Part shown: piece by piece, positions 5,449 to 53,657 of the stretch
Layout of the letters: the number at the start of each line of letters is the position of its first letter
Numbering within the stretch: position 1 is the first letter of the stretch
Assembly (NCBI GenBank): GCA_035655175.1
Contig: DASRVG010000123.1
Location: forward strand, 1-54,768
DNA length: 54,768 nucleotides
Direction of reading: 5' to 3'
Origin: Clostridia bacterium
Lineage (GTDB): Bacteria > Bacillota > Clostridia > Ch29
Position numbers and translations under genes: made by a program
Notes under the pieces: model-generated
The model's database searches: none
Told to the model about the DNA's origin: nothing
What the model saw: only the letters and a program-made list of their open reading frames with translations

Positions 5449-6783
5449 CTAGTAGCCCGGCCTTCCCATAAGGCGGTAGGTAATCCTCTTGCCCTCCTCC
5501 ACCGCCGGCTGGTCAAAGGCGTTTATCCCCATGAGCTCGCCCATGTAAGCGGTCATAAGCATGTAGAAGAATATGAGCTGGCCTATTGTATAGGGCGATA
5601 CCGTCGGCAGGGATATCCTAAGGCACATCCTTCCCCGTTTTGCCAGCACGCTCTCGGTGGCCTCCAGCTCGGATGCCAGCAGTTTTTCCAGCGTGCTGCC
5701 GCCCAGATACTGCAGTTCATTTCCTACCCCGCCCGGTAGTGGTATAATAAATGAGTTTTGTCTTTTCTCAACCTCTATCAGCGTAAAAATTTTATCGTCC
5801 GGTCCGTCCAGGAAAAGCTGCAGCAGTGAGTGCTGGTCCCTTGCCCCAATCGCTTTAAGGGGTGTCTGTCCCACCGGTACGGCAGTGCCACTGACATGTT
5901 TTGTTTTCCCAAGGCTTTCCGCCCAAAGCTGGCAGTACCAGTCTCCAAAATAGTCCAGGGCATCCGAATAGGGCATTACAACCGATATGCTTTTGCCCCC
6001 TTGGTAGGCGATATAATGCAGGGCCGCGCCCATAAGGGCGGGGTTCTTGCAAGGGTCATGGGCGGAGCAGCCCCTTAGTCCGGTCTCGGCCCCCGAGAGA
6101 AGTTCATCTATGTCAATGCCCGACACCGCCGCAGAAAGGAGCCCCACCGCCGACAGCGCCGAATACCTCCCGCCCACATTGCCGGGTATGTGAAACAGCC
6201 GGTACCCTTCCTGCCGGGCTATCTCAAGCAGGATTCCACGGGAGGCGTCGGTGGTGGCAATAATGCTCTCCGCCGCCCTTTTGGGACCCGCTGCCCTTTC
6301 CAGCATATCCTTTAAAACAAAGAAGTTTGCCATGGTTTCCACGGTACCGCCCGACTTTGTAATAACGTTAAACGCTGTATCTTTTAGGTCCAACACGTCA
6401 AGAAGCCCCTTCAAACGGTCGCTGTCTATGCTGTCCAGCACATAAACCCTTGGGCAGCCTTTTCTCTTACCGGCGGGCAGTTCGTTATACAAGGGATGGT
6501 TCAAGGCACAATGCAGCATCCTGTTGCCCAGGGCTGAACCCCCAATGCCTATAACCACCAGGTTTTTAAAATTGTCTTTAATGTACTCGGCGGTTTGCTT
6601 AATGGCCGCGGCACCCTCCTTATTTAATGGAAGGTCAAAAAATCCCAAAAGGCCCGCTTCCCTCTTTGCGTCCACCGCCTGGACGGCTGCTGCAAGGGCC
6701 GGGCGGTTGCTTTCAATTTCCCCTTCAACCCACGGAGCAGCCTGCAGCACCCTGGAAATGTCCAGCTTGATTCTATCGTTCAT
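5449..6783 (-). CDS. pgi: Glucose-6-phosphate isomerase
   Basis: About 444 aa. Shows VVIGIGGSALGN, GGRYSALSAVGL and the QHS..Q region typical of Firmicute Pgi. I place the start at ATG 6783 (GGGAGG 8 nt upstream) rather than the track's GTG 6789. Confidence 0.9.
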   Translation of the reverse strand: MNDRIKLDISRVLQAAPWVEGEIESNRPALAAAVQAVDAKREAGLLGFFDLPLNKEGAAAIKQTAEYIKDNFKNLVVIGIGGSALGNRMLHCALNHPLYNELPAGKRKGCPRVYVLDSIDSDRLKGLLDVLDLKDTAFNVITKSGGTVETMANFFVLKDMLERAAGPKRAAESIIATTDASRGILLEIARQEGYRLFHIPGNVGGRYSALSAVGLLSAAVSGIDIDELLSGAETGLRGCSAHDPCKNPALMGAALHYIAYQGGKSISVVMPYSDALDYFGDWYCQLWAESLGKTKHVSGTAVPVGQTPLKAIGARDQHSLLQLFLDGPDDKIFTLIEVEKRQNSFIIPLPGGVGNELQYLGGSTLEKLLASELEATESVLAKRGRMCLRISLPTVSPYTIGQLIFFYMLMTAYMGELMGINAFDQPAVEEGKRITYRLMGRPGY

Positions 6784-6911
6784 ATACACAGCCTCCCAGT
6801 ATTATCGGCAGCCGGTATCCGGCAGCCGTAAGCCCCTATGTGGTGCATTGCCCTGTAATTCCTTTTTGCTCCTTTGCAATCTTCCGGCTGCCAACTGCCA
6901 ACTACAAGCTA

Positions 6912-11600: not shown

Positions 11601-14600
11601 TTCCTGGCGGGGCTCAAATACACAATCTGCGAAATCATGTTCTGGTAGGTCTTTATTTCGCCTGCGCGCAGGTTAAGATAAGTGGTTTCCACCCGGCTTC
11701 TTGTAAGGGCCAGGTCAAAGGCCCGGTCTATGGAATGGGGATTATGGTACTTGGCTGCCAGTGTCACCGCTTCATCCCTGCTGTCGGCCAGCCCCGTCAT
11801 AAAGCTTACCTTCACAATCTTGCCCGGCTCAACTCTCACCCTTCTTCTCAGGCACATTATTGGGTCCAGGACTATACCGACAGTGTTGGTAAGGGGCTGG
11901 GTCAGCCCTGCGGGATTTGTAACATCCCTGCCCCGGCCTATGAAATTTCCCCTAATTGTCTCATACTGCAAGCTGCCGGCGGTTTCACCCTCCACCGCAA
12001 CGGTATGCACCATCCATAGGGGGCTTTTACCTGTCTCCCTTGGCCGCCGTGAGGCAATAATGCCGTCGTACTGCGATACAAGTTCGGTCCTTACAAACAG
12101 GTTGCTGAAAGCGGGATGGGCCGCATCGGCGGACTGCGGGGCCAGCACCGGTTCCAAGTAGCTGGTTAGCTCCACAACCGCCGGCTCGCTGCCGTGGTTT
12201 GTCAGGGAAACCCTCCTTATCTCCGCGTTGTCCTCGGTGGTCACCACTATTTCGCTGTGGGTGTCTATGTTGTCATCCGTCCTGTAGTACTCTGCCTTGT
12301 CCTGGGAAAATACCACCATGTACCCGTCGGGCCGGCCGCCAAGGGGCTCAGAGGTGCTGCTCCATATCCTCTTGGTACTTAAATTTCTCAGGAATACGAA
12401 CATGCCGTAATTACCCTTTAACGCATCCTCCCTCCAGCGGGTGACCTGTAAGCCGTCCTTTTTGCTGTACCCGCCGCCCCCGTTTGTCAGCATAACCGAG
12501 TAGCGTCCGTTGGAAAGCAGGTGGCACTGGGGGATGGGCGTATCCGGCACACCGAATATCCTTATAACCTTTACCTCTTCCCTGTCTATGACCTCCAGGG
12601 GCTTTACCGTTTCCTTGTACTCCTTTGTTATGATAACCCTAAGCGGTATCTTCTCCTGGAGCAGTATTTCCGCCGATTTCATCACCGGGTCGCTGTGGAA
12701 CCTGTTTTGGATAATACCCCGGTTTATGTAATTATTAAGGGAAATGAGGCCCATTCCCTGGTGATGAGCCATATAGCTTTTTACTATAACTTTTTTGCTT
12801 CCCCGGGGTAGACGGTCCGGCGTGTAGTCCACCGCCTCGTACAGGCCGTATTCGCCTTCAAGGCCCTCCTTCTTCAACCTTTTTATATTCTCCACCGCCA
12901 GCTTTGGATTTACAGGAAGTGCCAGCAGGGTTGAATAGGGCGACACCACCATGTCCTCCGCCAGGCCCCTTTTCAGCCCGAAGTCGGGTATCCCAAAGGC
13001 CCTGTACTGGTAATTCAAAAGCATGTCAAAGGCATAGTAACCCGACTCCGACACCCCCCAGGGAACGTCCCTTCTGTCCCCGTAGCTTTTCTGGGCCTTG
13101 ACTATGGTGCCGTAGGTCTCGTCCATCAGCGTGTTCCTGTAGCTTTTAAGTACAAGAAGGGGCATCAGGTATTCGAACATGGTCCCTCCCCAGGACACAA
13201 GACCCCTGTACCCGTCGGCCACCGAAAGGGCGCGGCCCAGTTTGAACCAGTGTTTTTTCGGCACCTCTCTCCGGGCAATGGCAATGTAGCTGGTTATTCT
13301 CGCCTCGGAAGCCAGCATGTCATAATAGGAGTTTAAAAGCTTTTCCTCCCCGACGTTATACCCGATGGAAAAAAGGTGCCTTGTGGTATCATAAAGCGGT
13401 TTGAACTCGGTTTCATCTATTATCCTGCCTATCGTCTCAATAAGCCGGTCCATGCGCTCAAGAAGGTCCGCCGTGTTTGCCCTGCACCTTACCACCTCGT
13501 TCCTCAGTTTTGAAATATAGGCGTCGGCATCGGCCTGCTTAAGGTTTATCCGCTGCAGCCTGTCCATCTCTTCCAGCAGCGCGTCGTATGTTTCCATAAG
13601 CCCTGTAGGCGAAATACCGCCGTTATTAATCCTTTCTACCAGGGCCAGCATCCCGGCATAATCCTGCTCCCAGTTTTCAAAACCGGTCGCTTTGTCCATT
13701 AAGGACCCGTCGGGAAACAGTTCCCGGGTTTCTTCGATAAAGGAAACAATGGTTTTCCTGAGTTTTATCATCCAGCTTTCGCTGCCGGGCGCAGCCTCCT
13801 TCAGCCTTTCAAGCAGCCGTCTCCATTCCGGCAAGTCTATGCCGCACTCTCCCAGAGCCCGGTCCAGCATGTCCACAGCGATCTCCGCGCCGTCCCCTGC
13901 CAGCAGCGCGGTATCTAGAAGGCCCCTTACAAGGGACATATCCACGAGTGGACTATTGCGGTACTCCTTAAGTCCCTGTCTCAGGCATATAAGGTACCCC
14001 ACCAGGTTGCCGCTGTCCACCGTTGAAACAAAATAGGGCCTTAACACCTCCAGCGTCCGGGTATCGTACCAGTTGTACAGGTGCCCCCTCCAGCTTTCCA
14101 TTTTCTCGATGGTGGTAATGGAGCGGTCTATCCTGTTCACCAGGTCGGTAGTAGAAATGTACCCAAAATCCCTGGCCGACAAAATTGATATAAGCATAAA
14201 CCCTATGTTTGTCGGGGACGTCCTGTGAGCCACCCCGTTGGGCGGATCAATCTGCACGTTATCCGGCGCAAGGTAGTTGTTCTTCTCATCGGCAAAGTCC
14301 TCGTAGTATGCCCAGGTCTTCCGGGCAAGCATCCTAAGCTGCTCAATGTCTTCCGGGCCGACATCCTCCGGTTCTGTCTGATCCAAAACGCTTATCCTTT
14401 GTGCCACCCAGGGGGATAAGGCCCACAGGACTCCCAATGCCAGGGCATAGGGCAGACCGCCAGTCTTGAAGGGCAGCGCCGCCGCCAGCAATAGAACCGA
14501 AACCCCCACCGGGATTCTCATTTTTTTTGCATAGCCCAGCCGGTCGTCCTTGCAGACCTTTTCCGCCTCGGAAGCGGTAACCCATTCCAGCATATTCCTG

Positions 14601-17353
14601 CCGGATACGTACACCCTGTACAGCGTCCGTACTATGCCGTCCATGGTTATGTAAGCATTATAGGGAAGGAAAATAAGCAAAAGCAGCGCCTGGTACGCTG
14701 AAGCCCTAAGGCCGGGTATCACGTTGCCGTGCAGTTTATCACCGAAACCCGAATGGGACCCCAAGAATACGGTATCCATTATCTCAAACAGCAGCCAAAT
14801 GCCGATTGTAAACACCGAAAACAAAACCCAAAGGACCGCACTCCCGGGCAGTACCGTCATTCCCAAAAGTATCAGCAAAGCCTGGGATACAGGCACGAGG
14901 CTTCTTCTAAGATTGTCTAAAATCTTCCACCGGGACAGCAGCGACAGCGGGTTTTTACGAACCCTGCCTTCCCTGTCCCTTATCCGGGGATAAAGCCACC
15001 TTATAAGCTGCCAGTCCCCCCTAACCCACCGGTGCAGCCGCATCATGTAGGACCCGTACCCCGAAGGGTAACCGTCAATAAGCTCCATATCACTTGCAAG
15101 GGCGGTGCGGACAAAACTTCCCTCCAGCAGGTCGTGGCTTAGTATCGTATTGTCCGGGAAGGCATCCTTCAACATACTGTTAAAAACATCAACGTCGTAT
15201 ATGCCCTTTCCGGTGAATATGCCCTCCCCGAACAGGTCCTGGTATATATCCGAAATGGCGGTGGTATAGGGGTCTATGCCCCCCTGCCCGGCAAAAATAC
15301 GGGTAAAGGCCGACCTGTTGGCGCTTTCTATGTCTATCCCTATTCTCGGCTGGATTATGCCGTAACCGTCCCTTATTACGCCCCCATCGCCGTCGTATAC
15401 CGCCCGGTTAAGCGGGTGGGATATGGTGCCGATAAGCTTTCTGGCGGTATCCATGGTAAGGTTTGTATCCGCATCCAACGTAATGACATACTTCACACCC
15501 TTAAGGCGGGAAATATCCCCCGAAACCGTTGAATAGGAAGTATTTTTGCTGCCTTTTAGCAGCGCGTTAAGCTCCAGTATTGCCCCCCTTTTCCTTTCCC
15601 AGCCCATCCACTTGCCCTGTTTTTCATTATACTGCCGGTGCCTTACCAGGAAATAAAAGATATCACCCCCTTTGGAATACCTTTGGTTAAGCAGCTTCAC
15701 ACCCTCAAGGCCTTCGTTTATTATCCCCCGGTCCGCCGGCATAGTTTTTTGGTCGGAATCCTTAAAGTCCCCGGCCAATGCAAAATAAAGGTTATCCTCC
15801 CTGTTGGCATGGTAATATACCTCCAGCCGCTCCAAAAGGTCCCTTACTCCTTTTTTGTCCGGCAGAAGGGTAGGTATAACCACCAGCGTAGAGGCCTCCT
15901 CGGGTATACCGTCCCTGTATTCCAGTTTGGGTAAAAACGTGGGCTGGGTGGTGTGCGTAAAAAACCAGTTAACAAGGTTTATCGCCACTTCACTGGCCGG
16001 TACAAGTACGGCAAGCGCCACCAGCACACTCTTCAGCATGCTGCCCTCTCCGGCTAAGGAATATGAGTAGTACAAGAATCCCGATACAATTATTAGCGTA
16101 ACCAGCGCAATAGCGGAAAGGTAACAGGGTACGCTGTGGTTGTGGAACCTGTCCCTTGCAGTCTTGGCTCCCAGCCGCCTCAAAAGCTGCGTCCTTCCCC
16201 CGCCGGCAATATAATAGCCGACGTGGCGCTCCCTTTCACCGCCGTCTTCCTGGGCGGCCTTCCGGGCACATTCAACAGCTTTCCGTGCCACGCTTAACTG
16301 TGGAACCCCGGCCTTTCGCGCTATTTTTTCCACCAGTTTCCTATAATAGTCCCTCGACTCGAAGTCCATTTGCGGGTACACGCCGGCCGGGTCCTCCATC
16401 AACATTTCATGAATCGCGCAGAGGGACTCGAATATATCGTTCCAATCCAGCACCGCCACCACGTTGAGGCTGGTTATTGCATTGCCCACCGATATTTTCC
16501 TGGCCGCCTGTTCCTTGTGCTCCTGTTCCACCAGGTCCCTTACCGTCATGCCGTAATCATACAGCTTGTCGTCTAAAAAATCGATAATCTCCCCGCTGTC
16601 TATTCCATCCTTTCTGAGCCTTCTCAGCAGGTGTTCTACAAAGGAAGGGCTTATCCCCTTTTTGTCCTTCATCAGCTCCTTAAGGGCGGGCAGCAGGCTG
16701 CCTTGTTTTTCGTCAACAAACTCCCCGGCATTTTCCCACTGCTGCTGGGTCCTATGTATCTTCTCGCAGATATGCCTTATGTTCTCGATAAGGGCTAGCC
16801 TGGTCATCAGCGACAGGGACCAGACCTCGGCGCTGGACAGTCTGCTGTACCTCTGGTATGCTTTTATAAAGTCTACGATTAGGTTGTGGTCCAGCCTGCC
16901 GTCGGTATGGGCAACAAGCTCAAGGGCTATGGCATATACCCTTGGGTAACCCTTAAGGATACCGCTTCTTTGAATATTCAGCCTGCGCAGCCTCTCCCTG
17001 GTCAGGCTCTGCCTTACTTCCTTAACCTGTTCCTCTATTTTGTAATAGTTGTCCAGCAGCCATTCGGAGGCAGGAGTAAGGTCCCTGCCCCTTTTGGCAT
17101 GAGAGTTTACGCTTTTGTATACCTCGGTTATCACCTTGAAGTTTTTGTCCAGCCGTCCGTGAAGGGATTTTATACAGCCCGGCCGCCCGGACACGGTATG
17201 TTCCCTGGCTATTTGGGCCGCATGGTTTAAAAGCTGTTCAGGCTGGAGCAGCACATCCTTTATTGACCCCGCCTCTTTTTCGGCCAAGTTTTTGTATCTT
17301 CCAAATGCCGCAAGCAGCAGGCCCAAAGTCAAAACAAACAATATAGGTTTCAT
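8693..17353 (-). CDS. Cyclic beta-1,2-glucan synthase homologue (Cgs/ChvB/NdvB architecture: N-terminal TM + GT84-like glycosyltransferase, central alpha/alpha-barrel region, C-terminal GH94-like phosphorylase)
   Basis: Single 2886-aa ORF. The N-terminus has SEWLLDNYYKIEEQVKE. The GT region has ITLDADTNL (DxD), ILSHDLLEG and HRWVRGDWQL. Multiple TM segments follow. The C-terminal half has GH94-type motifs TPAPWVNVISNG, NKLTPWSNDPV, AYGFRDQLQD, GSGDWNDGMN and GGWTWYTGAAGW. Size and domain order match proteobacterial cyclic glucan synthases. Confidence 0.85.
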   Translation of the reverse strand: MKPILFVLTLGLLLAAFGRYKNLAEKEAGSIKDVLLQPEQLLNHAAQIAREHTVSGRPGCIKSLHGRLDKNFKVITEVYKSVNSHAKRGRDLTPASEWLLDNYYKIEEQVKEVRQSLTRERLRRLNIQRSGILKGYPRVYAIALELVAHTDGRLDHNLIVDFIKAYQRYSRLSSAEVWSLSLMTRLALIENIRHICEKIHRTQQQWENAGEFVDEKQGSLLPALKELMKDKKGISPSFVEHLLRRLRKDGIDSGEIIDFLDDKLYDYGMTVRDLVEQEHKEQAARKISVGNAITSLNVVAVLDWNDIFESLCAIHEMLMEDPAGVYPQMDFESRDYYRKLVEKIARKAGVPQLSVARKAVECARKAAQEDGGERERHVGYYIAGGGRTQLLRRLGAKTARDRFHNHSVPCYLSAIALVTLIIVSGFLYYSYSLAGEGSMLKSVLVALAVLVPASEVAINLVNWFFTHTTQPTFLPKLEYRDGIPEEASTLVVIPTLLPDKKGVRDLLERLEVYYHANREDNLYFALAGDFKDSDQKTMPADRGIINEGLEGVKLLNQRYSKGGDIFYFLVRHRQYNEKQGKWMGWERKRGAILELNALLKGSKNTSYSTVSGDISRLKGVKYVITLDADTNLTMDTARKLIGTISHPLNRAVYDGDGGVIRDGYGIIQPRIGIDIESANRSAFTRIFAGQGGIDPYTTAISDIYQDLFGEGIFTGKGIYDVDVFNSMLKDAFPDNTILSHDLLEGSFVRTALASDMELIDGYPSGYGSYMMRLHRWVRGDWQLIRWLYPRIRDREGRVRKNPLSLLSRWKILDNLRRSLVPVSQALLILLGMTVLPGSAVLWVLFSVFTIGIWLLFEIMDTVFLGSHSGFGDKLHGNVIPGLRASAYQALLLLIFLPYNAYITMDGIVRTLYRVYVSGRNMLEWVTASEAEKVCKDDRLGYAKKMRIPVGVSVLLLAAALPFKTGGLPYALALGVLWALSPWVAQRISVLDQTEPEDVGPEDIEQLRMLARKTWAYYEDFADEKNNYLAPDNVQIDPPNGVAHRTSPTNIGFMLISILSARDFGYISTTDLVNRIDRSITTIEKMESWRGHLYNWYDTRTLEVLRPYFVSTVDSGNLVGYLICLRQGLKEYRNSPLVDMSLVRGLLDTALLAGDGAEIAVDMLDRALGECGIDLPEWRRLLERLKEAAPGSESWMIKLRKTIVSFIEETRELFPDGSLMDKATGFENWEQDYAGMLALVERINNGGISPTGLMETYDALLEEMDRLQRINLKQADADAYISKLRNEVVRCRANTADLLERMDRLIETIGRIIDETEFKPLYDTTRHLFSIGYNVGEEKLLNSYYDMLASEARITSYIAIARREVPKKHWFKLGRALSVADGYRGLVSWGGTMFEYLMPLLVLKSYRNTLMDETYGTIVKAQKSYGDRRDVPWGVSESGYYAFDMLLNYQYRAFGIPDFGLKRGLAEDMVVSPYSTLLALPVNPKLAVENIKRLKKEGLEGEYGLYEAVDYTPDRLPRGSKKVIVKSYMAHHQGMGLISLNNYINRGIIQNRFHSDPVMKSAEILLQEKIPLRVIITKEYKETVKPLEVIDREEVKVIRIFGVPDTPIPQCHLLSNGRYSVMLTNGGGGYSKKDGLQVTRWREDALKGNYGMFVFLRNLSTKRIWSSTSEPLGGRPDGYMVVFSQDKAEYYRTDDNIDTHSEIVVTTEDNAEIRRVSLTNHGSEPAVVELTSYLEPVLAPQSADAAHPAFSNLFVRTELVSQYDGIIASRRPRETGKSPLWMVHTVAVEGETAGSLQYETIRGNFIGRGRDVTNPAGLTQPLTNTVGIVLDPIMCLRRRVRVEPGKIVKVSFMTGLADSRDEAVTLAAKYHNPHSIDRAFDLALTRSRVETTYLNLRAGEIKTYQNMISQIVYLSPARKKYRDIIAKNSKGQSSLWSYGISGDLPIVLVSIDETEHAELVRECLKAHEYWRLKGLPVDLVILNRDRSKYLQPLKKLVNEIVLSSSGRDVIDKSGGVHVIDASIMPEEDITLVYAAARIILRGGDGPIELQLKQPDQEDYPNEMSFNRYEMKYEARDYPMDLAFFNGYGGFAKDGREYIIKLKENSHTPAPWVNVISNGGFGFLVSENGSGSVWAENSRENKLTPWSNDPVTDPPGEVVYLRDEENGDVWSITPLPIRDDGDYTVRHGFGYTVFQHASHGIDQSLTVFVPEEEPVKVSLIRLKNYSNKKRHLSITYYIRPVMGISEQLTQQHIHTAYDEKTQALLIKNPFNYDFPGRTAFVAVSGEISSYTGDRMEFLGIGGDLANPKALSRESLSNRVGVGYDPCGAIQTHLELDPGEEKDIVLLLGQAQDEAGVKGIVDRFRSIENCRDALDRVTRYWENVLGVIKVKTPDASMDLMLNYWLMYQTIACRLRARTAFYQSGGAYGFRDQLQDAVNVVYALPQLTRRQILIHCAHQFVEGDVQHWWHPGIQEKGIRTRFTDDLLWLPYATAEYIKRTGDHGILDEEVHFLEDLPLEEGEDERYGTPRISEEKASVYDHCIRAIERALRFGEHGIPLMGSGDWNDGMNAVGRKGKGESIWLGWFICDTLKKFIPACKYMRDFERSERYERAIGDISRAIEENGWDGSWYRRAYFDDGTPLGSSENTECTIDSIAQSWAVISGQGDTRRSAEAMNAVEHYLVKRDEGIILLFTPPFDQSELEPGYIKSYVPGVRENGGQYTHAATWVINAFAMLGQGDKAWELFNMINPVNHARTMIECATYKVEPYVVAADVYAVAPHSGRGGWTWYTGAAGWLYRVGLEYMLGFMKESDRLVIKPCIPREWSEYSIEYRYKSSVYQITVKNPDRVSQGVREVTLDSEVMEDGYIPLSDDGKRHTVVVTLGEKPGNHA

Positions 17354-28570: not shown

Positions 28571-29537
28571 CTCCCTCGAAGGCCCTGTGACAAGCCACCC
28601 AGTGCGTTCCCAAAATCAATCCGGATGTCGGCTCGCTGTCACGGCATATTTCCTGCTTTTCCATGCACCTGGAATAATACCTGCATCCCCTTAGGTCTCT
28701 GTCTCTTTCTTCTTTTATAATGGTATTTACCCGGTTCACCCTTTCTCCCTTGTTCCTCGGTATGGCATTTAACAGGGTAAGGGTGTACGGGTGCCTGGGG
28801 TCTTTCAGCACTTCCCTTACACTGCCCGTCTCCACTATCCGACCCGCGTTCAGTATGGCAACCCTTTTGCATATGGCCGAAACAAGCCCCAGGTTGTTTG
28901 CAATAAACAGTACCGTAACCCCCAGTTCTCTCTGAAGTTCCGCTATAAGCTTTAATATTCCGGCCTGGATTGTAACGTCAAGGTTCCGGGTGGGCTCGTC
29001 GGCTATTAAAAACTCGGCTCCGCAGGACAGTGCAATGGCTATTACTATCCTCTGCCTCTGTCCGCCGCTGAGCTCGTGGGGGTATTTACCCATAATGTTT
29101 TTGGCATCCGGCAGTTTTACCATTTCAATCATTCCAAGGGCTTCCTTTTCCGCTTCTTTCCTGGAAATCCTCTTGTTGTTCCTGAAAACCCTTATTATCT
29201 GTTCTCCCACTGTAAAGACCGGGTTAAGGGTGGACATGGGGTCCTGGAATATCATCGAAATATGCCTGCCCCGTATCTTTCGCATTTCCGATTCGGGCTT
29301 TTGCAGCAAGTCTTCTCCATTAAATAGTATGCTGCCGCTTTCTATGACCGACGGGGGGGACGACAAAAGGCGTAATATGGTAAGGGCAAGCACCGTTTTC
29401 CCTGCACCGCTTTCGCCTACTATACCAAAGGTTTCTCCCTTATTCAGCACCATCGTATCTATATCCAGTACATTTTTTTGTCCCTCAAAAGTTTTAAAAC
29501 CCACCCTCAGTTCCTTTATCTTAAAATACTCACCCAT
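28536..29537 (-). CDS. oppD: Oligopeptide/dipeptide ABC transporter ATP-binding protein (OppD-type)
   Basis: GESGAGKT, LSGGQRQR, LIADEPT. ATG 29537 is preferred over GTG 29546. Confidence 0.9.
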   Translation of the reverse strand: MGEYFKIKELRVGFKTFEGQKNVLDIDTMVLNKGETFGIVGESGAGKTVLALTILRLLSSPPSVIESGSILFNGEDLLQKPESEMRKIRGRHISMIFQDPMSTLNPVFTVGEQIIRVFRNNKRISRKEAEKEALGMIEMVKLPDAKNIMGKYPHELSGGQRQRIVIAIALSCGAEFLIADEPTRNLDVTIQAGILKLIAELQRELGVTVLFIANNLGLVSAICKRVAILNAGRIVETGSVREVLKDPRHPYTLTLLNAIPRNKGERVNRVNTIIKEERDRDLRGCRYYSRCMEKQEICRDSEPTSGLILGTHWVACHRAFEGGEPGGGQHTEG

Positions 29538-29549
29538 GTTATCCACCCC

Positions 29550-30443
29550 TTAAATCTTTCTGGTCTTGGGGTCCAGTATTTCCCTTAAACCGTCTCCCAA
29601 TAGGTTAAAGACCAATACCGTGACAAATATTGCAAGACCCGGGAAAATGCTGTACCACCATGCATTCAGGAAATAATTCCTGCTGGTGCTCACCATAAGT
29701 CCCCACTCGGGAGTGGGAGGCTGCGCACCCAGGCCAAGGAAGCTGAGGGAAGCTATAGTGAGTATTACTCCGCCAATATCCATGGATGCCTGGACTATTA
29801 CCGGCGCTATGCAGTTGGGTACAATATGCCCAAAAATAATCCTCACCGGCGGGGTTCCTATCGCCCTTGCCGCTTTTACAAACTGCCTTTCCCTTATGGA
29901 CACCGCCTGACCCCTTATGAGCCTCGTATACCACGGCCACCAGGACACGCCGATGGCCAGCATTGCATTTTCAAGGCTGGGGCCAAGAAATGCGGCTATC
30001 GCTATGGCCAGCAGCAGGGGCGGGAAGCTTAGGAATATATCTGTAATCCTCATAATTACCTCATCCACCATTCCTCCGGTAGCCCCTGCAATCGCTCCCA
30101 GCGGTATTCCTATCAAAAGGGCAAGCCCTACCGCTATAAGGGCCGTCTGCAGCGAAATTCTTGTACCGTAAATAACACGGCTGAATATATCTCTTCCCAG
30201 TTCATCGGTCCCGAAATAGTACTTGCCGGAGGGAGGCAGCAGCTTATCCACCGGGTTGGCCTCGGTTTCTATATGTTCCGGGTGGGGAACTATAAAGGGA
30301 GCCGCCAGCGCGGTAAGACCAAGCAGAATAACCACGCCCAGCGACAACCGGGTCAGCCTGTTTCTGCACAGCAGGTATAAGGACAGCTTTATTTCCGTGA
30401 TTCTTGGTTTGATTGAATTCATTATTCCGGAGCTTTTGGTCAT
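29550..30443 (-). CDS. oppC: Oligopeptide ABC transporter permease (OppC-type)
   Basis: BPD-transport permease with the EAA-like loop ARAIGTPPVRIIFGHIVPN. ATG 30443 with GGAGG 8 nt upstream, 13 nt after the oppB stop. Confidence 0.9.
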   Translation of the reverse strand: MTKSSGIMNSIKPRITEIKLSLYLLCRNRLTRLSLGVVILLGLTALAAPFIVPHPEHIETEANPVDKLLPPSGKYYFGTDELGRDIFSRVIYGTRISLQTALIAVGLALLIGIPLGAIAGATGGMVDEVIMRITDIFLSFPPLLLAIAIAAFLGPSLENAMLAIGVSWWPWYTRLIRGQAVSIRERQFVKAARAIGTPPVRIIFGHIVPNCIAPVIVQASMDIGGVILTIASLSFLGLGAQPPTPEWGLMVSTSRNYFLNAWWYSIFPGLAIFVTVLVFNLLGDGLREILDPKTRKI

Positions 30444-30456
30444 GCCGTATACCTCC

Positions 30457-31467
30457 CTATACCCGGACTCTCGGGTCCAGGGCAATTATTACGTCCGCAA
30501 CAAGGTTCAACACCACGTAGGCACAGGCTGAGAAGATGGTGACCCCCATTATCGCCGGATAGTCAAGGCTTATTACCGCCGACGAGATGTAGCTTCCTAT
30601 TCCCGGCCAGCTGAATATAGCTTCCACCAGGAACGTATTGACCAGGGTATACCCGATGGACAGTGCCACCACGGTGGCCGTCGGGCCAAGCGAATTCTTC
30701 AGCGCATAGGACCAAAGCACCATCCTTTCGGGCAGTCCATAGGAACGGGCCGCCCTTATATAGTCCTCGTCCAGTATCTCCAACAGCGCCGAACGGGTCA
30801 TACGCGCCACCAGGCCTATCGGGTACAGGGCAACGGTTATCCCCGGCAGTATAATATGGGCCAGCGCATCCCGGAAAACCACAAAATCACCGGTTATAAG
30901 GCTGTCAAACATCAAGAAACCCGTTATATGTGGAATTTCGCGGGTCAGCTTTATCCCCATGCTCAGCTGACCTCCCAAAGGGAGCAGCCCCAGCCACCTG
31001 TAGAATATAAGCTGCAGGAACATGCCTACCCAAAAGGTAGGCAGCGACACCGCCCCCACCGAAAAGAACCTGCTTACATGGTCCACCATATGGTCCTTTC
31101 TCTTGGCGGATGCAACGCCTAAGGGTATACCAATGATAACGGCCACTATGGTGGATACCAGCACAAGTTCAATGGTGGCCGGCAGGTATGCCTTAAGCTC
31201 CGCGGATACCGGCTGGTGGGACCTCAACGACCTTCCAAGGTCGCCCTTAGCCAAATCGGCAAGGTATCTCTCCAGTTGAACGTACAAGGGCTTGTCCAGT
31301 CCCAGTTCGATCTTTGCAGCCTCGATCTGCTCGGCGGTTGCTCTCTGCCCTACCCACTGGGCGGCAGGGTTTGAAGGTATCACCCTCGTAAGTACAAATG
31401 TAATCAGTATCACCCCGAACAAAACCAGGATGCCCAGCAAAACCCTTTTTACAATAAAAGACCTCAT
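30457..31467 (-). CDS. oppB: Oligopeptide ABC transporter permease (OppB-type)
   Basis: MRSFIVKRVLLGILVLFGVILITFVL N-terminus and YIRAARSYGLPERMVLWSYALKN loop. Confidence 0.9.
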   Translation of the reverse strand: MRSFIVKRVLLGILVLFGVILITFVLTRVIPSNPAAQWVGQRATAEQIEAAKIELGLDKPLYVQLERYLADLAKGDLGRSLRSHQPVSAELKAYLPATIELVLVSTIVAVIIGIPLGVASAKRKDHMVDHVSRFFSVGAVSLPTFWVGMFLQLIFYRWLGLLPLGGQLSMGIKLTREIPHITGFLMFDSLITGDFVVFRDALAHIILPGITVALYPIGLVARMTRSALLEILDEDYIRAARSYGLPERMVLWSYALKNSLGPTATVVALSIGYTLVNTFLVEAIFSWPGIGSYISSAVISLDYPAIMGVTIFSACAYVVLNLVADVIIALDPRVRV

Positions 31468-31526
31468 CTGGAAACTCCTCCCTGGGAAAACATGCGAAAG
31501 GGGCTAAACAATAGCCCCTTTAACTC

Positions 31527-33125
31527 CTATTCACGGTATGTGTCATAGAAGAACACCACGTTGGGGTATATGGGGTTGCTCTTAAATCCTTTGAAGGAGC
31601 TGTTTGTAACCCATACATATTTTTTATCGTAGGCAAATATCGAGGGCGCCTCATCAACAAGAATTTCCTGGGCTTGGATATACAGGTTTTCCGCCTCCTC
31701 AATATCTATACCGCTCATTTCGTTGCCCTTGTCTATCAACCGGTCATACTCTGCGTTCTTCCAATATGACAGGTTGAACAGTATTTCCTCCTCACTGTGG
31801 TACAGGCTGTAGAGCCAACTGTAGGGACTGGCATAGTCAGGCCACCAGTACATTGTCAGTAAGTCCTGCCGTTTCTGGGCGTCGGGATTCCTTGAAAGCT
31901 CCCACTGGCTCTCCCACGGCATACCCCTTATTTCCATGTTAATGCCTATTTTTGCAAGTTCCGCCTTGAACAGTTCCGCTGTCTTTTTCTCGGCCTCGTC
32001 CCCCGCCATATAGGTGAACAGAAGCTCCAGGCCGCCGTCCGGATATCCGGCCCGGGCAAGCAGTTCCCTGGCCTTGTCCAGGTCGTGCCGGTACTGGAAC
32101 AGGTTATCGCCATGGCCCCAGTGCCCTACGGGTATTGGTCCCCTGCCCTGGACCGCGTAACCTCCCATTGCGTACTTCACAACGTCCCCGTATGGGAATG
32201 CATAAGAAATGGCTTGCCTTACCAGCTTGTTGTCAAGGGGTGCCTTTTCGGTATTAAAGAATACTAGCAGGTTCTGGAATGAAGGCACCTCCATCACATT
32301 TACGGCAGGATTACCCTTAAGGACTTCAATATCCTCATAGGGGAGCTCCATTGTGACATCCGCCTCTCCCTTTTCAACCAACTGGCGCCTTGATGCGGTT
32401 TCAGGTATTTTCTTTATAACAACCTTGTCAAAATGCTCGCCTTCCCATCCCTTCCAGTAGTCGTCGAACTTGGTAAGGACAACCTCGTCACCCATTTTGA
32501 AGCTCTGAAGCGTATAGGGCCCGGTTCCCGCCACGTTGCCCTGGGAGAACCAGTCCTCGGGATTAGCCTCTATCGCTTCGGAGGACATTATAAACGCCGC
32601 ATACCCGGAACTGGCTATAAGGTCCAGCGGAGCCGGGTATTTAAGTTTAAAGTCCACGGTATAATCGTCTTTAACCACTATCTCCTCCACCGGGTCCCAG
32701 ACAAAGGCCGCCCCCTGGCCCAAAGCTATGGTCCTGTCTATGGATGCCTTAACATCTTTCGCAGTAAGGTCTGCCCCGTTGTGAAACTTTACTCCTTCCC
32801 TTATCTTGAAGGTCCAGGTCAAGCCATCGTCACTTTTGGTGTACTCGGTGGCCAGCACTGGTATCACTTCCTCGCTTATGGGTTCATACCTGAGCAGCGT
32901 CTCATACACGTTGTTAAGCACTACAATTCCATTGGAATACTCCACGCTCGGGTCCCAATCCAGTATAGGCTCGCTGTTGAAAGCATAAAAGGCTATTTTG
33001 GGCTGTACTTCCCCGGCATCGTTTTGGCCAACATCTCTTCCCCCGCACCCGGACGCGGCTAAGGTTACCAGCATAACCAGTATCACTGTCATAACGATGC
33101 TTTTTTTCCCTGAATACAGTTTCAT
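31527..33125 (-). CDS. oppA: ABC transporter substrate-binding lipoprotein, family 5 (OppA/DppA-like)
   Basis: 532 aa with lipobox LAASGC and an SBP_bac_5-type sequence. Confidence 0.85.
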   Translation of the reverse strand: MKLYSGKKSIVMTVILVMLVTLAASGCGGRDVGQNDAGEVQPKIAFYAFNSEPILDWDPSVEYSNGIVVLNNVYETLLRYEPISEEVIPVLATEYTKSDDGLTWTFKIREGVKFHNGADLTAKDVKASIDRTIALGQGAAFVWDPVEEIVVKDDYTVDFKLKYPAPLDLIASSGYAAFIMSSEAIEANPEDWFSQGNVAGTGPYTLQSFKMGDEVVLTKFDDYWKGWEGEHFDKVVIKKIPETASRRQLVEKGEADVTMELPYEDIEVLKGNPAVNVMEVPSFQNLLVFFNTEKAPLDNKLVRQAISYAFPYGDVVKYAMGGYAVQGRGPIPVGHWGHGDNLFQYRHDLDKARELLARAGYPDGGLELLFTYMAGDEAEKKTAELFKAELAKIGINMEIRGMPWESQWELSRNPDAQKRQDLLTMYWWPDYASPYSWLYSLYHSEEEILFNLSYWKNAEYDRLIDKGNEMSGIDIEEAENLYIQAQEILVDEAPSIFAYDKKYVWVTNSSFKGFKSNPIYPNVVFFYDTYRE

Positions 33126-33355: not shown

Positions 33356-34498
33356 TTACTTTATTATCTTGTGCACCTTGACTGCTATGGATATTTTCTC
33401 GTAAAAGCTTCCTTCCATCCCCTTCATGTCCAGGATTTCCTTTATCTTATTCAGCCGATACCTGATTGTGTTCTGATGCTGGTATAGGCTCTCAGCGGTT
33501 TTCCCAATGTCGCCGTCATTTTCAACAAAAGCTATGGCCGTGTTTAAAAGGCTTGTGCCCTTTTGCCTGTCGTAGTTTTCCAAAGGGGCTACTATCTCAT
33601 CATGGAACCTCTTAAGTTCCGGCTCATCCTTTATAAGCATGAGCAGCCTGTACACCCCGAGGTCGTTGTAGTAAACCCTTTTTTCGCTGTTTCCTTCCGC
33701 CACCTCGCAGGAAAGCAGAGCCTCCCTTATACACGTATTAAGGCTTCCCAGGCTGTGGTGCAGCCTGCTAATACCAAGCCTGTAATCGCCGAAATAATGG
33801 CCAATGTCTTCAACCAATTGCTCCAGCTGCATATTTATGCGTCCCTTTGGTCCCTTCTCAAAGCTGGTTAATATGAGTATGCCATCTTCATATTTCAAAA
33901 AAGACCAGTGGTCCTTATCCCTGTAAACATTTTTCAGTACCTGGATACCCGTCCCCTGGTTTGGACTGCACTTAAAATACAGCGCCGCCATGCTTTCGCG
34001 GAACATGCTGTTTATACTCTTTGCAGTGGTGATTATTTCCTGCTCGGTTACCGACGGCCGGAGAAGACTGCGGATGGTCATCTCGGTGATGGTTTTTTCC
34101 TGGTGCTTTATAATCGCATCCATTATATCGGTGATTACCGCCGCATAGGGTACGAAATTTGATATCATCACGACAGGATAGGCCGTTTTGTCGGCGAACT
34201 CCTTAATATCGGTATTAAGGTCGTCCATATACAGGTCGATGAGACACAGGCCGCTTGAATTGGTATCCACCAGCAGCCTTAGAGTATTCATCTGGGCCGT
34301 TGGGTCGTCCTTTATTGCATAAAAGCTGGATATATAAAAGTCCCCCTTGCCCATAACCGTGCCAAAGTCGTCCAAGTCGGGGCTTTCCAGCACGCTCACG
34401 CGGTTTATAAGCCTGTCAAAGCCGGACGCCCCTGCAATTATCCTTGCTCCTTTAAAACATTCCAGCCCCATGGCTTCCCTGACGCTAATGCTCATCAT
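33356..34498 (-). CDS. PucR-family transcriptional regulator
   Basis: 380 aa. The N-terminus resembles purine-catabolism PucR. The C-terminal HTH reads GDIGKTAESLYQHQNTIRYRLNKIKEIL. Confidence 0.85.
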   Translation of the reverse strand: MMSISVREAMGLECFKGARIIAGASGFDRLINRVSVLESPDLDDFGTVMGKGDFYISSFYAIKDDPTAQMNTLRLLVDTNSSGLCLIDLYMDDLNTDIKEFADKTAYPVVMISNFVPYAAVITDIMDAIIKHQEKTITEMTIRSLLRPSVTEQEIITTAKSINSMFRESMAALYFKCSPNQGTGIQVLKNVYRDKDHWSFLKYEDGILILTSFEKGPKGRINMQLEQLVEDIGHYFGDYRLGISRLHHSLGSLNTCIREALLSCEVAEGNSEKRVYYNDLGVYRLLMLIKDEPELKRFHDEIVAPLENYDRQKGTSLLNTAIAFVENDGDIGKTAESLYQHQNTIRYRLNKIKEILDMKGMEGSFYEKISIAVKVHKIIK

Positions 34499-50261: not shown

Positions 50262-50309
50262 GGAATAAAGCAGAGGGTGACTGGCCATTCAAAGCCCGTC
50301 ACCCTCTGC
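50262..50309 (-). terminator. Rho-independent terminator of the TAXI-TRAP operon
   Basis: 12-bp stem GCAGAGGGTGAC / GTCACCCTCTGC (50270-50281 / 50298-50309) followed on the minus strand by TTTATT. Confidence 0.75.
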
Positions 50310-50332: not shown

Positions 50333-51325
50333 TTATTTCAGAACTCCTACTTCCTTATAGTACTTAATCGCGCCGTCGTGCAGCGGAAGCCCTGCCAGGT
50401 CTGTCACCGCATCTTCCATTTTTAAGTCCTTTAATGCGCTGTTGGACTGTTTTAAAGTGTCTATGTTTTCCCAGAAGGATTTGGTCAGGTCGTATACCAC
50501 ATCCTCCGGAAGGTCTGCGCTTGTAAACATCGCCATCTTTATCGCAGAGGTTGTGATATCCTGCTCCTGTCCTTCATAGGTTCCGGCGGGAATAGTGTAC
50601 TTCGCGTACCAGGGGTATTTCCCTTTAAGCCCGGCGATTATTTCCTCGTCTATGGGAACCAGCTTACCGTTCGCAGTGGTGGTAATCTCGGTAACGGCGG
50701 CGGTAGGCAGTCCCGCCATAATCCAGGCCCCGTCCAACTGCTTGTTTCTCATGAGGTCGATCGCTTCGGTAAAACCGACGAATTGTACGTTTAAACCATC
50801 GGGGTAGTCAACACCCGCTTCTTCCAAGTGCAGTTTTGTTTCCACTTCCGTTGTGCTCCCCGGAGCGCCCGAGGCAAAGTTTTTCCCTTCTATATCCCTT
50901 AAGCTGTCAATACCTGCATCCCTTCTTACAACAACCTGGTTTGGATTGTAGTACAGGCCGGAAAGCACCCTCAGCTTTTCGTTGGGCCTTCCCTCAAATA
51001 CGGCTTCCCCTTTATAGGACTGGTACATTATGCTGGTTACAGCCATGCTCACCTGGGCTTCGCCGCTTTGTAAAAGGTTTAAATTGTCTATCCCCCCGTT
51101 GGAGGCCTGCGCATTTGCTTTCACATAGCCTAATTCGTCGTTCCATAATTTGGCCAGGGACGAACCCAGGGGATAAAGCGCCCCCGTTGTAGCCGCGGTC
51201 GGGATATTGATTACTACCGTTTCCCTGCCTCCCTGCTCGTTTTTTGTCTTACTTTCGTCCGTTGTCCCAATGCATCCGGAAAGAATTACAAGAGTTGCTA
51301 GGATTAGTAATAACACTCTTTTCAT
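50333..51325 (-). CDS. TAXI-family TRAP transporter solute-binding lipoprotein
   Basis: 330 aa with lipobox ILSGC. TGALYPLGSSLAKLWN, SNGGIDNLNLL and GAIKYYKE are typical of TAXI (TRAP-associated extracytoplasmic immunogenic) receptors. Confidence 0.85.
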   Translation of the reverse strand: MKRVLLLILATLVILSGCIGTTDESKTKNEQGGRETVVINIPTAATTGALYPLGSSLAKLWNDELGYVKANAQASNGGIDNLNLLQSGEAQVSMAVTSIMYQSYKGEAVFEGRPNEKLRVLSGLYYNPNQVVVRRDAGIDSLRDIEGKNFASGAPGSTTEVETKLHLEEAGVDYPDGLNVQFVGFTEAIDLMRNKQLDGAWIMAGLPTAAVTEITTTANGKLVPIDEEIIAGLKGKYPWYAKYTIPAGTYEGQEQDITTSAIKMAMFTSADLPEDVVYDLTKSFWENIDTLKQSNSALKDLKMEDAVTDLAGLPLHDGAIKYYKEVGVLK

Positions 51326-51368
51326 GTCAACGTCTCCTTTCCATTTCTTAATTGGTTAGAGTATCTGT

Positions 51369-53321
51369 TTAAGCATATTGTTTACGTCTCATCTGAACAA
51401 AAATGACAGCCGATAAAATAACAATCCCCAGGATATCCGTTTGCAGCTTTGGGTCAATTGCGAATAACCCGACAATACAAAGCAGTATTCTCGTAACCAT
51501 GGAACATTTTCTAAGCAGCATTCCCTCCAGGCCTGCCGCCAGGCAAAAAACCCCGATTGAGGCGGTGATTAAAGTCCTGGCCGTCAATAATGCTGTCACG
51601 TCCTGGGCGCTTCCAAGCAGCAAAACGGGATTATCCAAGAAGAAAAAGGGCAGAATGAAACCCGTAATGCCTAATTTTACTGCAATCAGTGATGTCTTGG
51701 TCTGGTTTGCCCTTGCTATTCCTGCTGCTACATAGGAACTCATGGCTACCGGCGGCGTAATATTGGATAAACAGGCATAAATGAGGCAGAACATATGCGC
51801 GGCCATCGGCGTTGCCCCTACCTTAATGAGCACGGGTACGGCCACTGCTGCAACAATAACGTATGCAGCCACACCGGGAACGCCCATGCCCAGTATCGTA
51901 CTCATGACCATTACCATAAATCCTCCCAGGAAAAGTTGCCCCTCCCTTACAACTTCCAGAATCAAATGGCCGAAATTAAGTCCCAACCCGGTTAAAGAGA
52001 CGGTACCGATAATAAGGCCAATCAAAACACAGGATACGCCTACCCCAACAGCGCTTCTTGCACCTTCCGCCGTCGCTTCTATAATGGTCTTTAAGTCCAT
52101 CCTGGTTTCTTTTCTCAGCCAGGATGCCGCCAAGGTGGCAAAAATGGAAGCACCCGCTGCAAACAACGGTGTATATCCCAGCAGCATCATCCCTATTAAA
52201 ACCGCCAAGGGAATAAGCAAATGTCCTCTTTTCTTTATTAGCTCCAGGGCATCCGGGATATTTTCCTTTGACAGCCCTTTAAGGCCTAATTTCTTCGCCT
52301 CCAGGTGGACGGAGGCCATGATACCCAAATAGTATAAGAACGCCGGGAAAAAGGCTGCAATCATTACCTTGGTATAGCTTATCCCCAGGAACTCCGCCAT
52401 AACAAAACCTACGGCACCCATAATGGGCGGTGTAAACTGTCCCCCGGTGGAAGCTACCGCTTCTACCGCCGCAGCAAAATCGGCCTTATATCCTATCTTT
52501 TTCATTAAAGGTATTGTGATTGTTCCGGTGGTGGCTACATTTGCAATGGCACTGCCATTAATCATTCCCAAAAGGGCGCTTGCCAATACCGCAACCTTTG
52601 CCGGGCCGCCGGTGGAACGCCCCACCAGGGTCAGTGCAATATCGTTTATAAACTGGCTGAACCCGCTGTACTTCAAGTAGCTTCCAAACAGTACAAAGGT
52701 AAAAATGTAGGTGGCGCTGACGCCTATGCCCACTCCGAAGATTCCCTGGCTTCCCCAAAACATATGGCTCAAAACCCTTTTTAGCGTGAACCCGGAATGC
52801 CCCAGGATACCCGGTATAAACTTCCCAAACCAGTTAAACAGCAGGAAAACCACTGATAAAACGGCCAGGTTCCTGCTTGCCCTTCTTCCCGCTTCCAATA
52901 CCAATACAATGCTTATTCCCGCCACTATTACATCGGTTTTATTTAAAAACCCGCCTGACATGGCTACTCTTTTATAGTTTAGAACCATATATCCAAAAAC
53001 AATAACCGTTATGATTACAAGCAGGCTGTCCAGAACAGGTACGAACCTTCTTGTCCTTTTCTCTTTACCGAAACAGGGATAAAACAAAAACGTAAACATT
53101 AATAAAAACAGGGCGTGATACGCTCTTAGGGTAATGGCATCCATAACTCCTAAGGTATTGTAATACAGCTGGAAGATTGCCCACGCTATTAATAAAGCCG
53201 TCATTAGCGTGCCGAAGAAACCTCTGTATTCTCTAGTGCGCATATTCGCATCCTTTTCCTCCAGCAGCCTCTCTGCGTCTCTTACTATTTCATTTTGCTT
53301 GGAATTTTCTTGCTCTTTCAT
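51369..53321 (-). CDS. TRAP transporter fused permease (TAXI-type, DctQ-DctM fusion)
   Basis: About 650 aa from ATG 53321, highly hydrophobic with many TM segments. The layout matches the TAXI-associated fused 4TM/12TM permease. The track's ORF start 53411 lies inside the upstream leader terminator. Confidence 0.85.
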   Translation of the reverse strand: MKEQENSKQNEIVRDAERLLEEKDANMRTREYRGFFGTLMTALLIAWAIFQLYYNTLGVMDAITLRAYHALFLLMFTFLFYPCFGKEKRTRRFVPVLDSLLVIITVIVFGYMVLNYKRVAMSGGFLNKTDVIVAGISIVLVLEAGRRASRNLAVLSVVFLLFNWFGKFIPGILGHSGFTLKRVLSHMFWGSQGIFGVGIGVSATYIFTFVLFGSYLKYSGFSQFINDIALTLVGRSTGGPAKVAVLASALLGMINGSAIANVATTGTITIPLMKKIGYKADFAAAVEAVASTGGQFTPPIMGAVGFVMAEFLGISYTKVMIAAFFPAFLYYLGIMASVHLEAKKLGLKGLSKENIPDALELIKKRGHLLIPLAVLIGMMLLGYTPLFAAGASIFATLAASWLRKETRMDLKTIIEATAEGARSAVGVGVSCVLIGLIIGTVSLTGLGLNFGHLILEVVREGQLFLGGFMVMVMSTILGMGVPGVAAYVIVAAVAVPVLIKVGATPMAAHMFCLIYACLSNITPPVAMSSYVAAGIARANQTKTSLIAVKLGITGFILPFFFLDNPVLLLGSAQDVTALLTARTLITASIGVFCLAAGLEGMLLRKCSMVTRILLCIVGLFAIDPKLQTDILGIVILSAVIFVQMRRKQYA

Positions 53322-53353
53322 GGGAACCCTCGCCTTATGTAAGTCATAAATTA

Positions 53354-53595
53354 TAAAAAACAGGCTATTCTTCCCCAATGGAGCGAATAGCCTGTCCGCG
53401 GTACCATCCAAATTTATTTCTTAATTTCCTATAACGGTATTAACCGGCCGGGCCTACTCTCCAAAGGTTTCAGCCTGCAGCTCAAGGGTGTATTCAACAA
53501 CCGTAGCTTATGGGCTCTCACCTCTTCCCACTCTCTGTGAAGCATCCGTATTGCCTACTTCTCCCTGTCATTGCTTTTTCATTATAAAATTAATT
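53354..53595 (-). promoter_or_regulatory. T-box riboswitch leader, specifier codon UAC (tyrosine)
   Basis: The minus strand reads GCAATGAcagGGAGAAGTAgg (GA/K-turn + AGUA), AGAGAG, GGTGAGA, then the specifier-loop 3' side GAA-TAC-A (TAC = 53492..53490). The T-box sequence AAATTTGGATGGTACCGCGG lies at 53415..53396. The terminator is ACAGGCTATTC...GAATAGCCTGT + TTTTTT (53395..53355). Confidence 0.85.
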
Positions 53596-53601
53596 GTGCC
53601 T

Positions 53602-53630
53602 AATCTACCACATTCTTAAGCCGATGTCAA
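53602..53630 (-). promoter_or_regulatory. Sigma-A promoter driving the T-box leader
   Basis: Minus strand: TTGACA (53630..53625), 17 nt, TAGATT (53607..53602). Confidence 0.6.
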
Positions 53631-53657
53631 CCATAAAAACAATCCTTTCCTCCTTGG

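Follow-up and report, generated by a model that had tools for sequence, protein, structure and literature searches.

A T-box leader with a tyrosine specifier upstream of a TAXI-type TRAP transporter operon in a Clostridia bacterium, with a probable aromatic cargo

The tyrS leader found in Bacillus subtilis is the founding tyrosine T-box. In this leader, as cited in PMC2494555, a UAC specifier followed by a purine is combined with a K-turn, an AG bulge, a distal loop, a UGGN bulge and a competing terminator, and control is exerted at the level of transcription. A leader with the same set of features was found on the minus strand of a 54,768-nucleotide (nt) stretch of DNA from a Clostridia bacterium (assembly GCA_035655175.1, contig DASRVG010000123.1), which is referred to below as the window. 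The two leaders are likened here by their features, and the genes that follow them differ, since tyrS encodes a tyrosyl-tRNA synthetase, whereas the leader in the window precedes a transporter operon. Uptake systems under T-boxes with aromatic specifiers have been described in Firmicutes for the NhaC (Tyr) and NSS (Phe/Trp/Leu) families, and the list of T-box-controlled transporters given by Wels et al. (2008) additionally includes the ABC, APC, LIVCS, MFS and DAACS families, but no TRAP system (PMC2494555). Unlike the NhaC and NSS systems, the operon in the window encodes a binding-protein-dependent TAXI-TRAP transporter (PF06808 and PF16868). No published link between a T-box and a TRAP or TAXI system was found in the literature searched, although prior annotation in a database is possible. 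Taken singly, the RNA fits RF00230, and the proteins fit TIGR02123 and TIGR02122, as ordinary members of these families; the apparent novelty lies in the pairing of a T-box with TAXI-TRAP, a family of transporters for which such control had not been reported before.

Among the TAXI systems, that of Proteus mirabilis carries alpha-ketoglutarate, which is a precedent for a 2-oxo carboxylate as cargo. The orthophthalate system of Azoarcus sp. CIB offers a precedent for an aromatic carboxylate rather than an amino acid (PMC11574862). Both systems are likened to that of the window by description only, and neither has been reported under riboswitch control. Other TAXI substrates given in the literature are glutamate/glutamine (PMC11574862) and, as implied by a knockout phenotype, butyrate, fumarate and acetate (PMC12344293). 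The receptors VcGluP (VC0430, 8S4J) and TtGluBP (1US4/1US5) belong to the same TIGR02122 family as the receptor of the window, can be aligned with it end to end and presumably share its fold. The receptor of the window differs from them in the replacement of key ligand residues, in being a lipoprotein and in having its permease encoded upstream.

A cmscan search of the whole window gave a single Rfam match above the gathering score, the T-box family RF00230, and this match covered the model over its full length (Table 1). According to the covariance model, the antiterminator consists of two helices, UGGA/UCCA and GCGGA/UUCGC, separated by the bulge UGGUACC. Its 3' strand is overlapped by the 5' arm of the intrinsic terminator, and because the antiterminator helices share nucleotides with this arm, the two structures are mutually exclusive. 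Promoter-like sites were not enriched in the region (4 found against 5.2 expected by chance), so the putative promoter was assigned by its position in front of the leader. In the specifier loop, GAA-UAC-A was aligned to the model consensus GAAauuca: UAC occupies the three columns of the codon, and the A after it takes the column of the conserved purine and directly adjoins the CCCU strand by which the helix is closed. The same register was found in 16 related leaders, and UAC or UUC occupied the codon columns in all 17. Bacterial tRNA-Tyr, with its GUA anticodon and discriminator A73, fits both UAC and UGGU. The UGGU bulge implies an A discriminator, which would fit tRNA-Phe, tRNA-Ile and tRNA-Val equally well and does not discriminate among them. 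It is considered very probable that the leader senses tRNA-Tyr.

The permease gene starts with an ATG at 53321, 34 nt past the U run of the terminator and behind the ribosome-binding site AAGGCGAGGG. On the same strand, a spacer of 43 nt that includes a second ribosome-binding site separates it from the receptor gene downstream, whose product begins with MKRVLLLILATLVILSGC and carries the lipobox LSGC (Cys18), identified by eye. PF06808 (DctM) was the sole Pfam match of the permease, which thus belongs neither to the NhaC (PF03553) nor to the NSS family. A terminator-like hairpin closes the receptor gene, and the transcription unit was therefore taken to be a two-gene operon; a simple terminator scan had missed this hairpin because of its long loop. 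The initial annotation had described a complete T-box leader with these motifs, a promoter and a terminator, a UAC (Tyr) specifier, and a fused TRAP permease with a TAXI receptor downstream. All of the motifs are present on the minus strand, both protein families lie well above their cutoffs, and the covariance-model alignment that it proposed as a check gives UAC.

Table 1 Features of the leader, the operon, the related loci and the receptor pocket (positions refer to the window unless a locus or a residue is named)
Feature	Position	Strand	Evidence and details
Sigma-70-like promoter TTGACA-17 nt-TAGATT, TG upstream of -10	53602..53630	-	10/12 matches; -35 TTGACA 53630-53625, -10 TAGATT 53607-53602, spacer 17 nt
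T-box leader (RF00230), full length	53376..53580	-	112.2 bits, gathering score 93, E 4.7e-24, model positions 1-219 of 219
Stem I	53480..53574	-	covariance-model alignment and sequence
K-turn UGA in Stem I	53570-53568	-	sequence, aligned to conserved model columns
AGUA in Stem I	53559-53556	-	sequence, aligned to conserved model columns
AG bulge AGAGAG in Stem I	53536-53531	-	sequence, aligned to conserved model columns
Distal loop GGUGAGA in Stem I	53522-53516	-	sequence, aligned to conserved model columns
GAA-UAC-A of specifier loop	53495-53489	-	aligned to conserved model columns
Specifier codon UAC (Tyr), stem strand CCCU after it	53490..53492	-	model positions 91-93, A at 94
T-box sequence AAAUUUGGAUGGUACCGCGG, antiterminator 5' side	53396..53415	-	sequence and covariance model
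UGGU bulge in T-box sequence	53406-53403	-	would pair with ACCA 3' end of tRNA
Intrinsic terminator ACAGGCUAUUC...GAAUAGCCUGU, then U6	53355..53395	-	minimum free energy -25.7 kcal/mol, z -3.7; arms of 11 base pairs (bp), 53395-53385 and 53370-53360; U6 at 53360-53355
Fused TRAP (QM) permease, 650 amino acids (aa)	51369..53321	-	TIGR02123 637.1 bits (cutoff 321), positions 3-612 of 615; PF06808 5.8e-86
TAXI solute-binding lipoprotein, 330 aa	50333..51325	-	TIGR02122 307.3 bits (cutoff 84), 1-320 of 320; PF16868 1.1e-84
Terminator-like hairpin after receptor stop: GCAGAGGGUGAC, 16-nt loop, GUCACCCUCUGC, then UUUAUU	50264..50309	-	12-bp arms, read from sequence
Related loci with UAC (Tyr) specifier	L002, L012 (Clostridium aceticum), L016 (Natronincola peptidivorans, two tandem leaders), L022, L025, L029, L030 (tandem)
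Related loci with UUC (Phe) specifier	L013 (N. ferrireducens, two tandem leaders), L017, L018 (Chakrabartyella piscis), L019 (Bengtsoniella intestinalis), L074, L099
Tandem leaders	L013 1739-1943 and 2098-2302; L016 1907-2111 and 2151-2355; L030 2092-2294 and 2333-2536
Deleted leader, equivalent to window 53352-53650	L023 2490-2600; L024 2020-2128
D-2-hydroxyacid dehydrogenase	L017 5495-6463; L018 5898-6875; L019 5466-6401; L099 about 5749-6711		PF00389/PF02826
VcGluP Y45 (holds amino group)	receptor L50		alignment
VcGluP Q93 (holds amino group)	receptor V96		alignment
VcGluP E125 (holds amino group)	receptor N127		alignment
VcGluP S75 (ligand contact)	receptor G78		alignment
VcGluP H123 (ligand contact)	receptor Y125		alignment
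VcGluP G156 (ligand contact)	receptor T158		alignment
VcGluP D157 (ligand contact)	receptor T159		alignment
VcGluP Y200 (ligand contact)	receptor I202		alignment
VcGluP Q97 (nearby, not a reported contact)	receptor M100		alignment

The conservation of this pairing was followed in 90 related loci, 10 of which were obtained via receptor homologues and 80 via a metagenome scan with the permease alignment; the sample is biased to anaerobic-digester and gut metagenomes. Clade loci from both sets, plus L002, with at least 350 nt of upstream sequence were regarded as testable (78 loci), and leaders were detected in them by Rfam cmscan, by nhmmer and by a search with the regular expression TGGNACCNCG. 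A T-box was located directly upstream of the permease gene in 13 of the 78 testable loci, and its specifier was exclusively UAC or UUC, so the question raised by the initial annotation, whether orthologous operons keep a T-box, was answered positively. Two of these leaders scored below the Rfam threshold, that of L018 with 73.5 bits and that of L099, just below it, with 90.5 bits. The Rfam search gave no T-box in 20 diverse loci that were already negative by nhmmer or the regular expression. A terminator hairpin with a U run was clear in 14 of the 17 leaders examined, and attenuation thus appears, from these predicted structures, to be the common mechanism among them.

In a neighbour-joining tree of the receptors, the loci with T-boxes fell into three separate clusters: the clade of the window (lineage A), a group consisting of L017, L018, L019 and L099 (lineage B), and L074 alone, whose sister sequences have no leader. 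The leaders of lineages A and B are only 36-41% identical and show no kinship beyond the family-wide motifs; their 5' ends could not be aligned with MAFFT. The L074 leader matches the profile of the A and B leaders at the T-box core only and is distinct from both. The simplest reading of these comparisons would be that this transporter acquired a T-box independently on at least three occasions, with an aromatic specifier each time; the basis of this scenario is a simple neighbour-joining tree, together with how dissimilar the leaders are.

The order of the two genes, with the permease before the receptor, had been called unusual, which did not hold for this clade: the same order was found in every clade locus where both genes could be placed. 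The opposite order is found in the distant homologues (35-44% identity). A genome scan with the permease alone returned mostly such homologues, with the receptor gene first and without a T-box; they represent a different subfamily, with the pocket residues G/A/Y/F. Receptor homologues as a whole are numerous, with more than 1,500 at E <1e-40. Additionally, a more distant TAXI pair and an EamA-family gene in locus L080 are closely followed by a strong Phe (UUC) T-box (122 bits) at 6622-6836. Downstream of this T-box comes a membrane-protein gene starting at about 6957, the product of which resembles a sodium:solute symporter in its N-terminus and would be another transporter under Phe control.

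The closest relatives also provide natural variants of the leader. The two Natronincola species, L013 and L016, differ in the middle specifier base (UUC versus UAC) in both of their tandem leader copies, although their receptors are 87% identical, their leaders are 89-90% identical and their ligand-contact residues are all the same. A Tyr-to-Phe switch of this kind has been proposed for a T-box lineage in Firmicutes (PMC2494555) and is thus also seen here. The tandem copies are 97% identical within a species and 89-90% identical between the species, a pattern that suggests independent duplication or concerted evolution. In two metagenome contigs, L023 and L024, with permeases 91% identical to that of the window and the same DUF5131 gene upstream, the promoter and almost all of the leader are missing; TCTATATTTTTTAT stands in place of about 260 nt, and what is left is the 3' half of the terminator with the U run. 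Read-through from upstream, or constitutive expression, is probable for the operon in these strains. Judging from these sequences, T-box control is gained, retuned and lost on short timescales.

The receptor of the window shows 31-33% identity to VcGluP (8S4J) and TtGluBP (1US4), which bind glutamate/glutamine, with E values of about 1e-48 to 1e-50. Its pocket was mapped by transferring the ligand contacts of VcGluP (PMC11574862) through an alignment at about 32% identity. None of the three side chains by which the glutamate-binding TAXI receptor holds the amino group is retained (Table 1), and the signature of the glutamate/glutamine binders (Y45, Q93, E125 and S75) is not found in the window receptor. 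The pocket signature of the window receptor is retained, with conservative changes, throughout the clade of 47-100% identity. Comparison of the Tyr-wired receptor of the window with the Phe-wired receptor of L013 showed 24 of the 26 mapped positions to be identical, every ligand contact included. So, the predicted pocket is uncharged, largely hydrophobic and blind to Tyr versus Phe wiring. Every Tyr-wired receptor has Thr at residue 258 (codon at about 50552-50554), where the Phe-wired receptors have Ile, Leu, Leu, Leu, Met or Gln, and this makes it a possible candidate for a Tyr/Phe selectivity position; the correlation is confounded by phylogeny, lineage A offering only a single independent contrast.

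In all four lineage-B Phe loci, and in no other locus, the receptor gene is followed by a gene for a D-2-hydroxyacid dehydrogenase, which overlaps the receptor gene, or sits 20 nt from it, in L019 and L017. The presence of a 2-hydroxyacid dehydrogenase under a Phe T-box is best understood if an aryl-lactate or aryl-pyruvate is imported and then converted to Phe. An assignment of the dehydrogenase to a particular substrate was attempted and dropped, because its scores lay below every NCBIfam equivalog cutoff and its best relatives in the PDB were PGDH-like enzymes and glyoxylate reductases; hydroxyphenylpyruvate reductase (3BA1) gave an E value of 5e-38 only. As separate observations on these loci, two lineage-B operons are directly preceded by genes for an electron-transfer flavoprotein that has a ferredoxin domain (L018 1-1973 and L019 1-787). 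An FAD-linked oxidase gene is also present upstream in L018. The set is similar to lactate-type dehydrogenase complexes. In L019, two genes of the glutamate-dehydrogenase family are additionally located downstream.

We consider it likely that the leader is a canonical transcription-attenuating Tyr T-box controlling the two-gene TAXI-TRAP operon, with an aromatic cargo. As established T-box biology would predict, the terminator hairpin and the U run would halt RNA polymerase before the permease gene as long as tyrosyl-tRNA is plentiful. When uncharged tRNA-Tyr accumulates, its anticodon would pair with UAC in the specifier loop of Stem I and its free ACCA end with UGGU in the T-box bulge, and this pairing would stabilise the antiterminator and allow read-through into the transporter genes. 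The transporter would then import an aromatic compound and restore the supply of tyrosine. What was observed directly, and what this scheme starts from, is the anatomy of the RNA, the register of the specifier, the identity of the genes and the pattern of conservation.

One alternative concerns the reading frame of the specifier. Read in a neighbouring frame, the leaders would specify Ile or Val (AUA, AUU, GUU) or else Thr or Ser (ACA, UCA), and the hydrophobic pocket would carry branched-chain amino or oxo acids. In TBDB, shifts of the frame by one position either way are considered (PMC7778990); read at -1, the window has AUA and L013 has AUU, each an Ile codon, and the largely aliphatic pocket would suit a branched-chain cargo. 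At the same time, GAA-UAC-A has no spacer in the window and in Clostridium aceticum (L012), so that the -1 frame would consume the last A of GAA. This A is assigned to the S-turn motif of T-boxes. Moreover, Ile T-boxes normally use AUC, and AUA would require the rare lysidine tRNA. In lineage B and L074, the base before the triplet is G, G, A, U and G, yet UUC is invariant, and the -1 frame would give the incoherent mix of Val, Val, Ile, Phe and Val. Because UUC is invariant while the preceding nucleotide varies, the canonical frame is, on this comparison, the constrained one, and it is also the frame that falls on the codon columns of the model throughout. A shifted frame was therefore judged to be highly improbable.

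With the specifier read as UAC, the other alternatives concern the cargo. A Tyr/Phe-family aromatic is the probable class, because the repeated acquisitions all carry UAC or UUC and the same predicted pocket occurs in both wirings. The 2-oxo or 2-hydroxy acids of this class (4-hydroxyphenylpyruvate, 4-hydroxyphenyllactate and the phenyl analogues) may quite possibly be the actual cargo; the amino acids Tyr and Phe themselves are a somewhat weaker possibility, and the rest of the expectation falls to something else. Within the aromatics the choice is roughly even, with a slight preference for the former, because the amino-group ligands are lost, the dehydrogenase is present and TRAP systems favour carboxylates. 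The initial annotation had predicted import of tyrosine or a tyrosine precursor. A Tyr/Phe-family aromatic describes the cargo better than tyrosine alone, since the same pocket is wired to a Phe UUC specifier in the relatives; from the pocket chemistry and the lineage-B dehydrogenase, a precursor, which the initial prediction already covers, is at least as likely as the amino acid. An importer whose receptor binds L-tyrosine and little else would agree with the UAC specifier, with the fact that nearly all T-box-controlled transporters described carry the cognate amino acid (PMC2494555), with the amino acids bound by the closest solved TAXI receptors (PMC11574862) and with the distribution of Thr at residue 258. 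N. ferrireducens, however, has a receptor that is 82% identical, with the same ligand-contact residues, yet it is under Phe T-boxes; the amino-group holders Y45, Q93 and E125 of VcGluP are replaced by L, V and N; and the residue-258 correlation is a single independent contrast. So, such a strictly specific importer seems unlikely. Tentatively, the TAXI clade could instead serve the salvage of aromatic 2-hydroxy and 2-oxo acids (phenyllactate, 4-hydroxyphenyllactate and aryl-pyruvates) and not be an amino-acid importer. The T-boxes would then tie uptake directly to the charging of tRNA-Phe or tRNA-Tyr, and in lineage B the co-operonic dehydrogenase would oxidise the imported aryl-lactate to an aryl-pyruvate, from which transamination would give the amino acid. 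Aryl-lactates and aryl-pyruvates are abundant fermentation products in anaerobic habitats. Finally, the T-box may be real and the cargo unrelated to aromatics, the system being a general importer of organic acids or carbon sources that is switched on in amino-acid starvation. TRAP systems carry mostly organic acids (PMC11574862), the neighbouring genes are heterogeneous across the loci, and a T-box is lacking in the majority of the clade, among them every Sphaerochaeta-like member. Three independent leader gains, all of them aromatic, would be hard to explain unless the cargo relieves a shortage of Tyr or Phe. T-boxes occur largely in Bacillota and in a small number of further phyla, so that the lack of them in spirochaete homologues carries little weight against an aromatic cargo. 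A cargo of this unrelated kind is thus very unlikely.

Several points weigh against a canonical Tyr T-box with an aromatic cargo. Stem I, folded alone by thermodynamics, was no better than shuffled sequence (z 0.07), and the energy program paired AGUA with the specifier; as this folding was uninformative, the covariance model was used as the evidence for Stem I. The window contains no tRNA gene with which the specifier could be matched. The operon of the window includes no enzyme that would tie it to tyrosine metabolism, nor is there any aromatic-metabolism link among the neighbouring genes of the window, which encode a DUF5131 protein, a thioredoxin-like DUF255 protein (the gene after the receptor), an M20 peptidase, an Opp-type ABC transporter, glutamine synthetase and a giant GH94 protein. 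The T-box is absent from 65 of the 78 testable relatives, and this, together with the two deletions at 91% permease identity, indicates that T-box control is dispensable and patchy. The pocket map derives from sequence alignment at 31-33% identity to solved structures, and the response to tRNA, the direction of regulation and the cargo are all inferred.

Some other features were noted beside these systems. In the window, an open reading frame of 2886 aa at 8693-17353 (-) carries GH94 supersandwich and catalytic domains and a glucoamylase-like domain; it resembles a cyclic beta-1,2-glucan synthase or a phosphorylase-type giant and is flanked by sugar-nucleotide and phosphoglucomutase genes. An Opp/Dpp-type peptide ABC operon, with a family-5 binding protein, two permeases and two ATPases, is located at 27572-33125 (-). 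It adjoins a gene for a PucR-family regulator at 33356-34498 (-), and an S-Me-THD-like protein is encoded nearby, at 25219-26337. In Clostridium aceticum (L012), a tandem glycine riboswitch lies at 7718-7919, upstream of grdX and the glycine reductase genes and a few kb from the TAXI operon; the position of this riboswitch upstream of grdX is a known arrangement.

With the operon described here, TRAP systems join the transporter families known under T-box control. A riboswitch that reports uncharged tRNA provides a sequence-encoded functional label for a large uncharacterised clade of TAXI transporters, and, if the three-gains reading holds, the aromatic label would have been written on this clade independently three times. 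The question of the TAXI cargo is thereby narrowed to a short, directly testable list of ligands. The two Natronincola species with UAC and UUC specifiers, and the two strains with a clean deletion of the leader, constitute a natural experiment. If the salvage of aromatic 2-hydroxy and 2-oxo acids proves to be true, the operon would represent a T-box-controlled route of precursor salvage and a new substrate class for the TAXI family.

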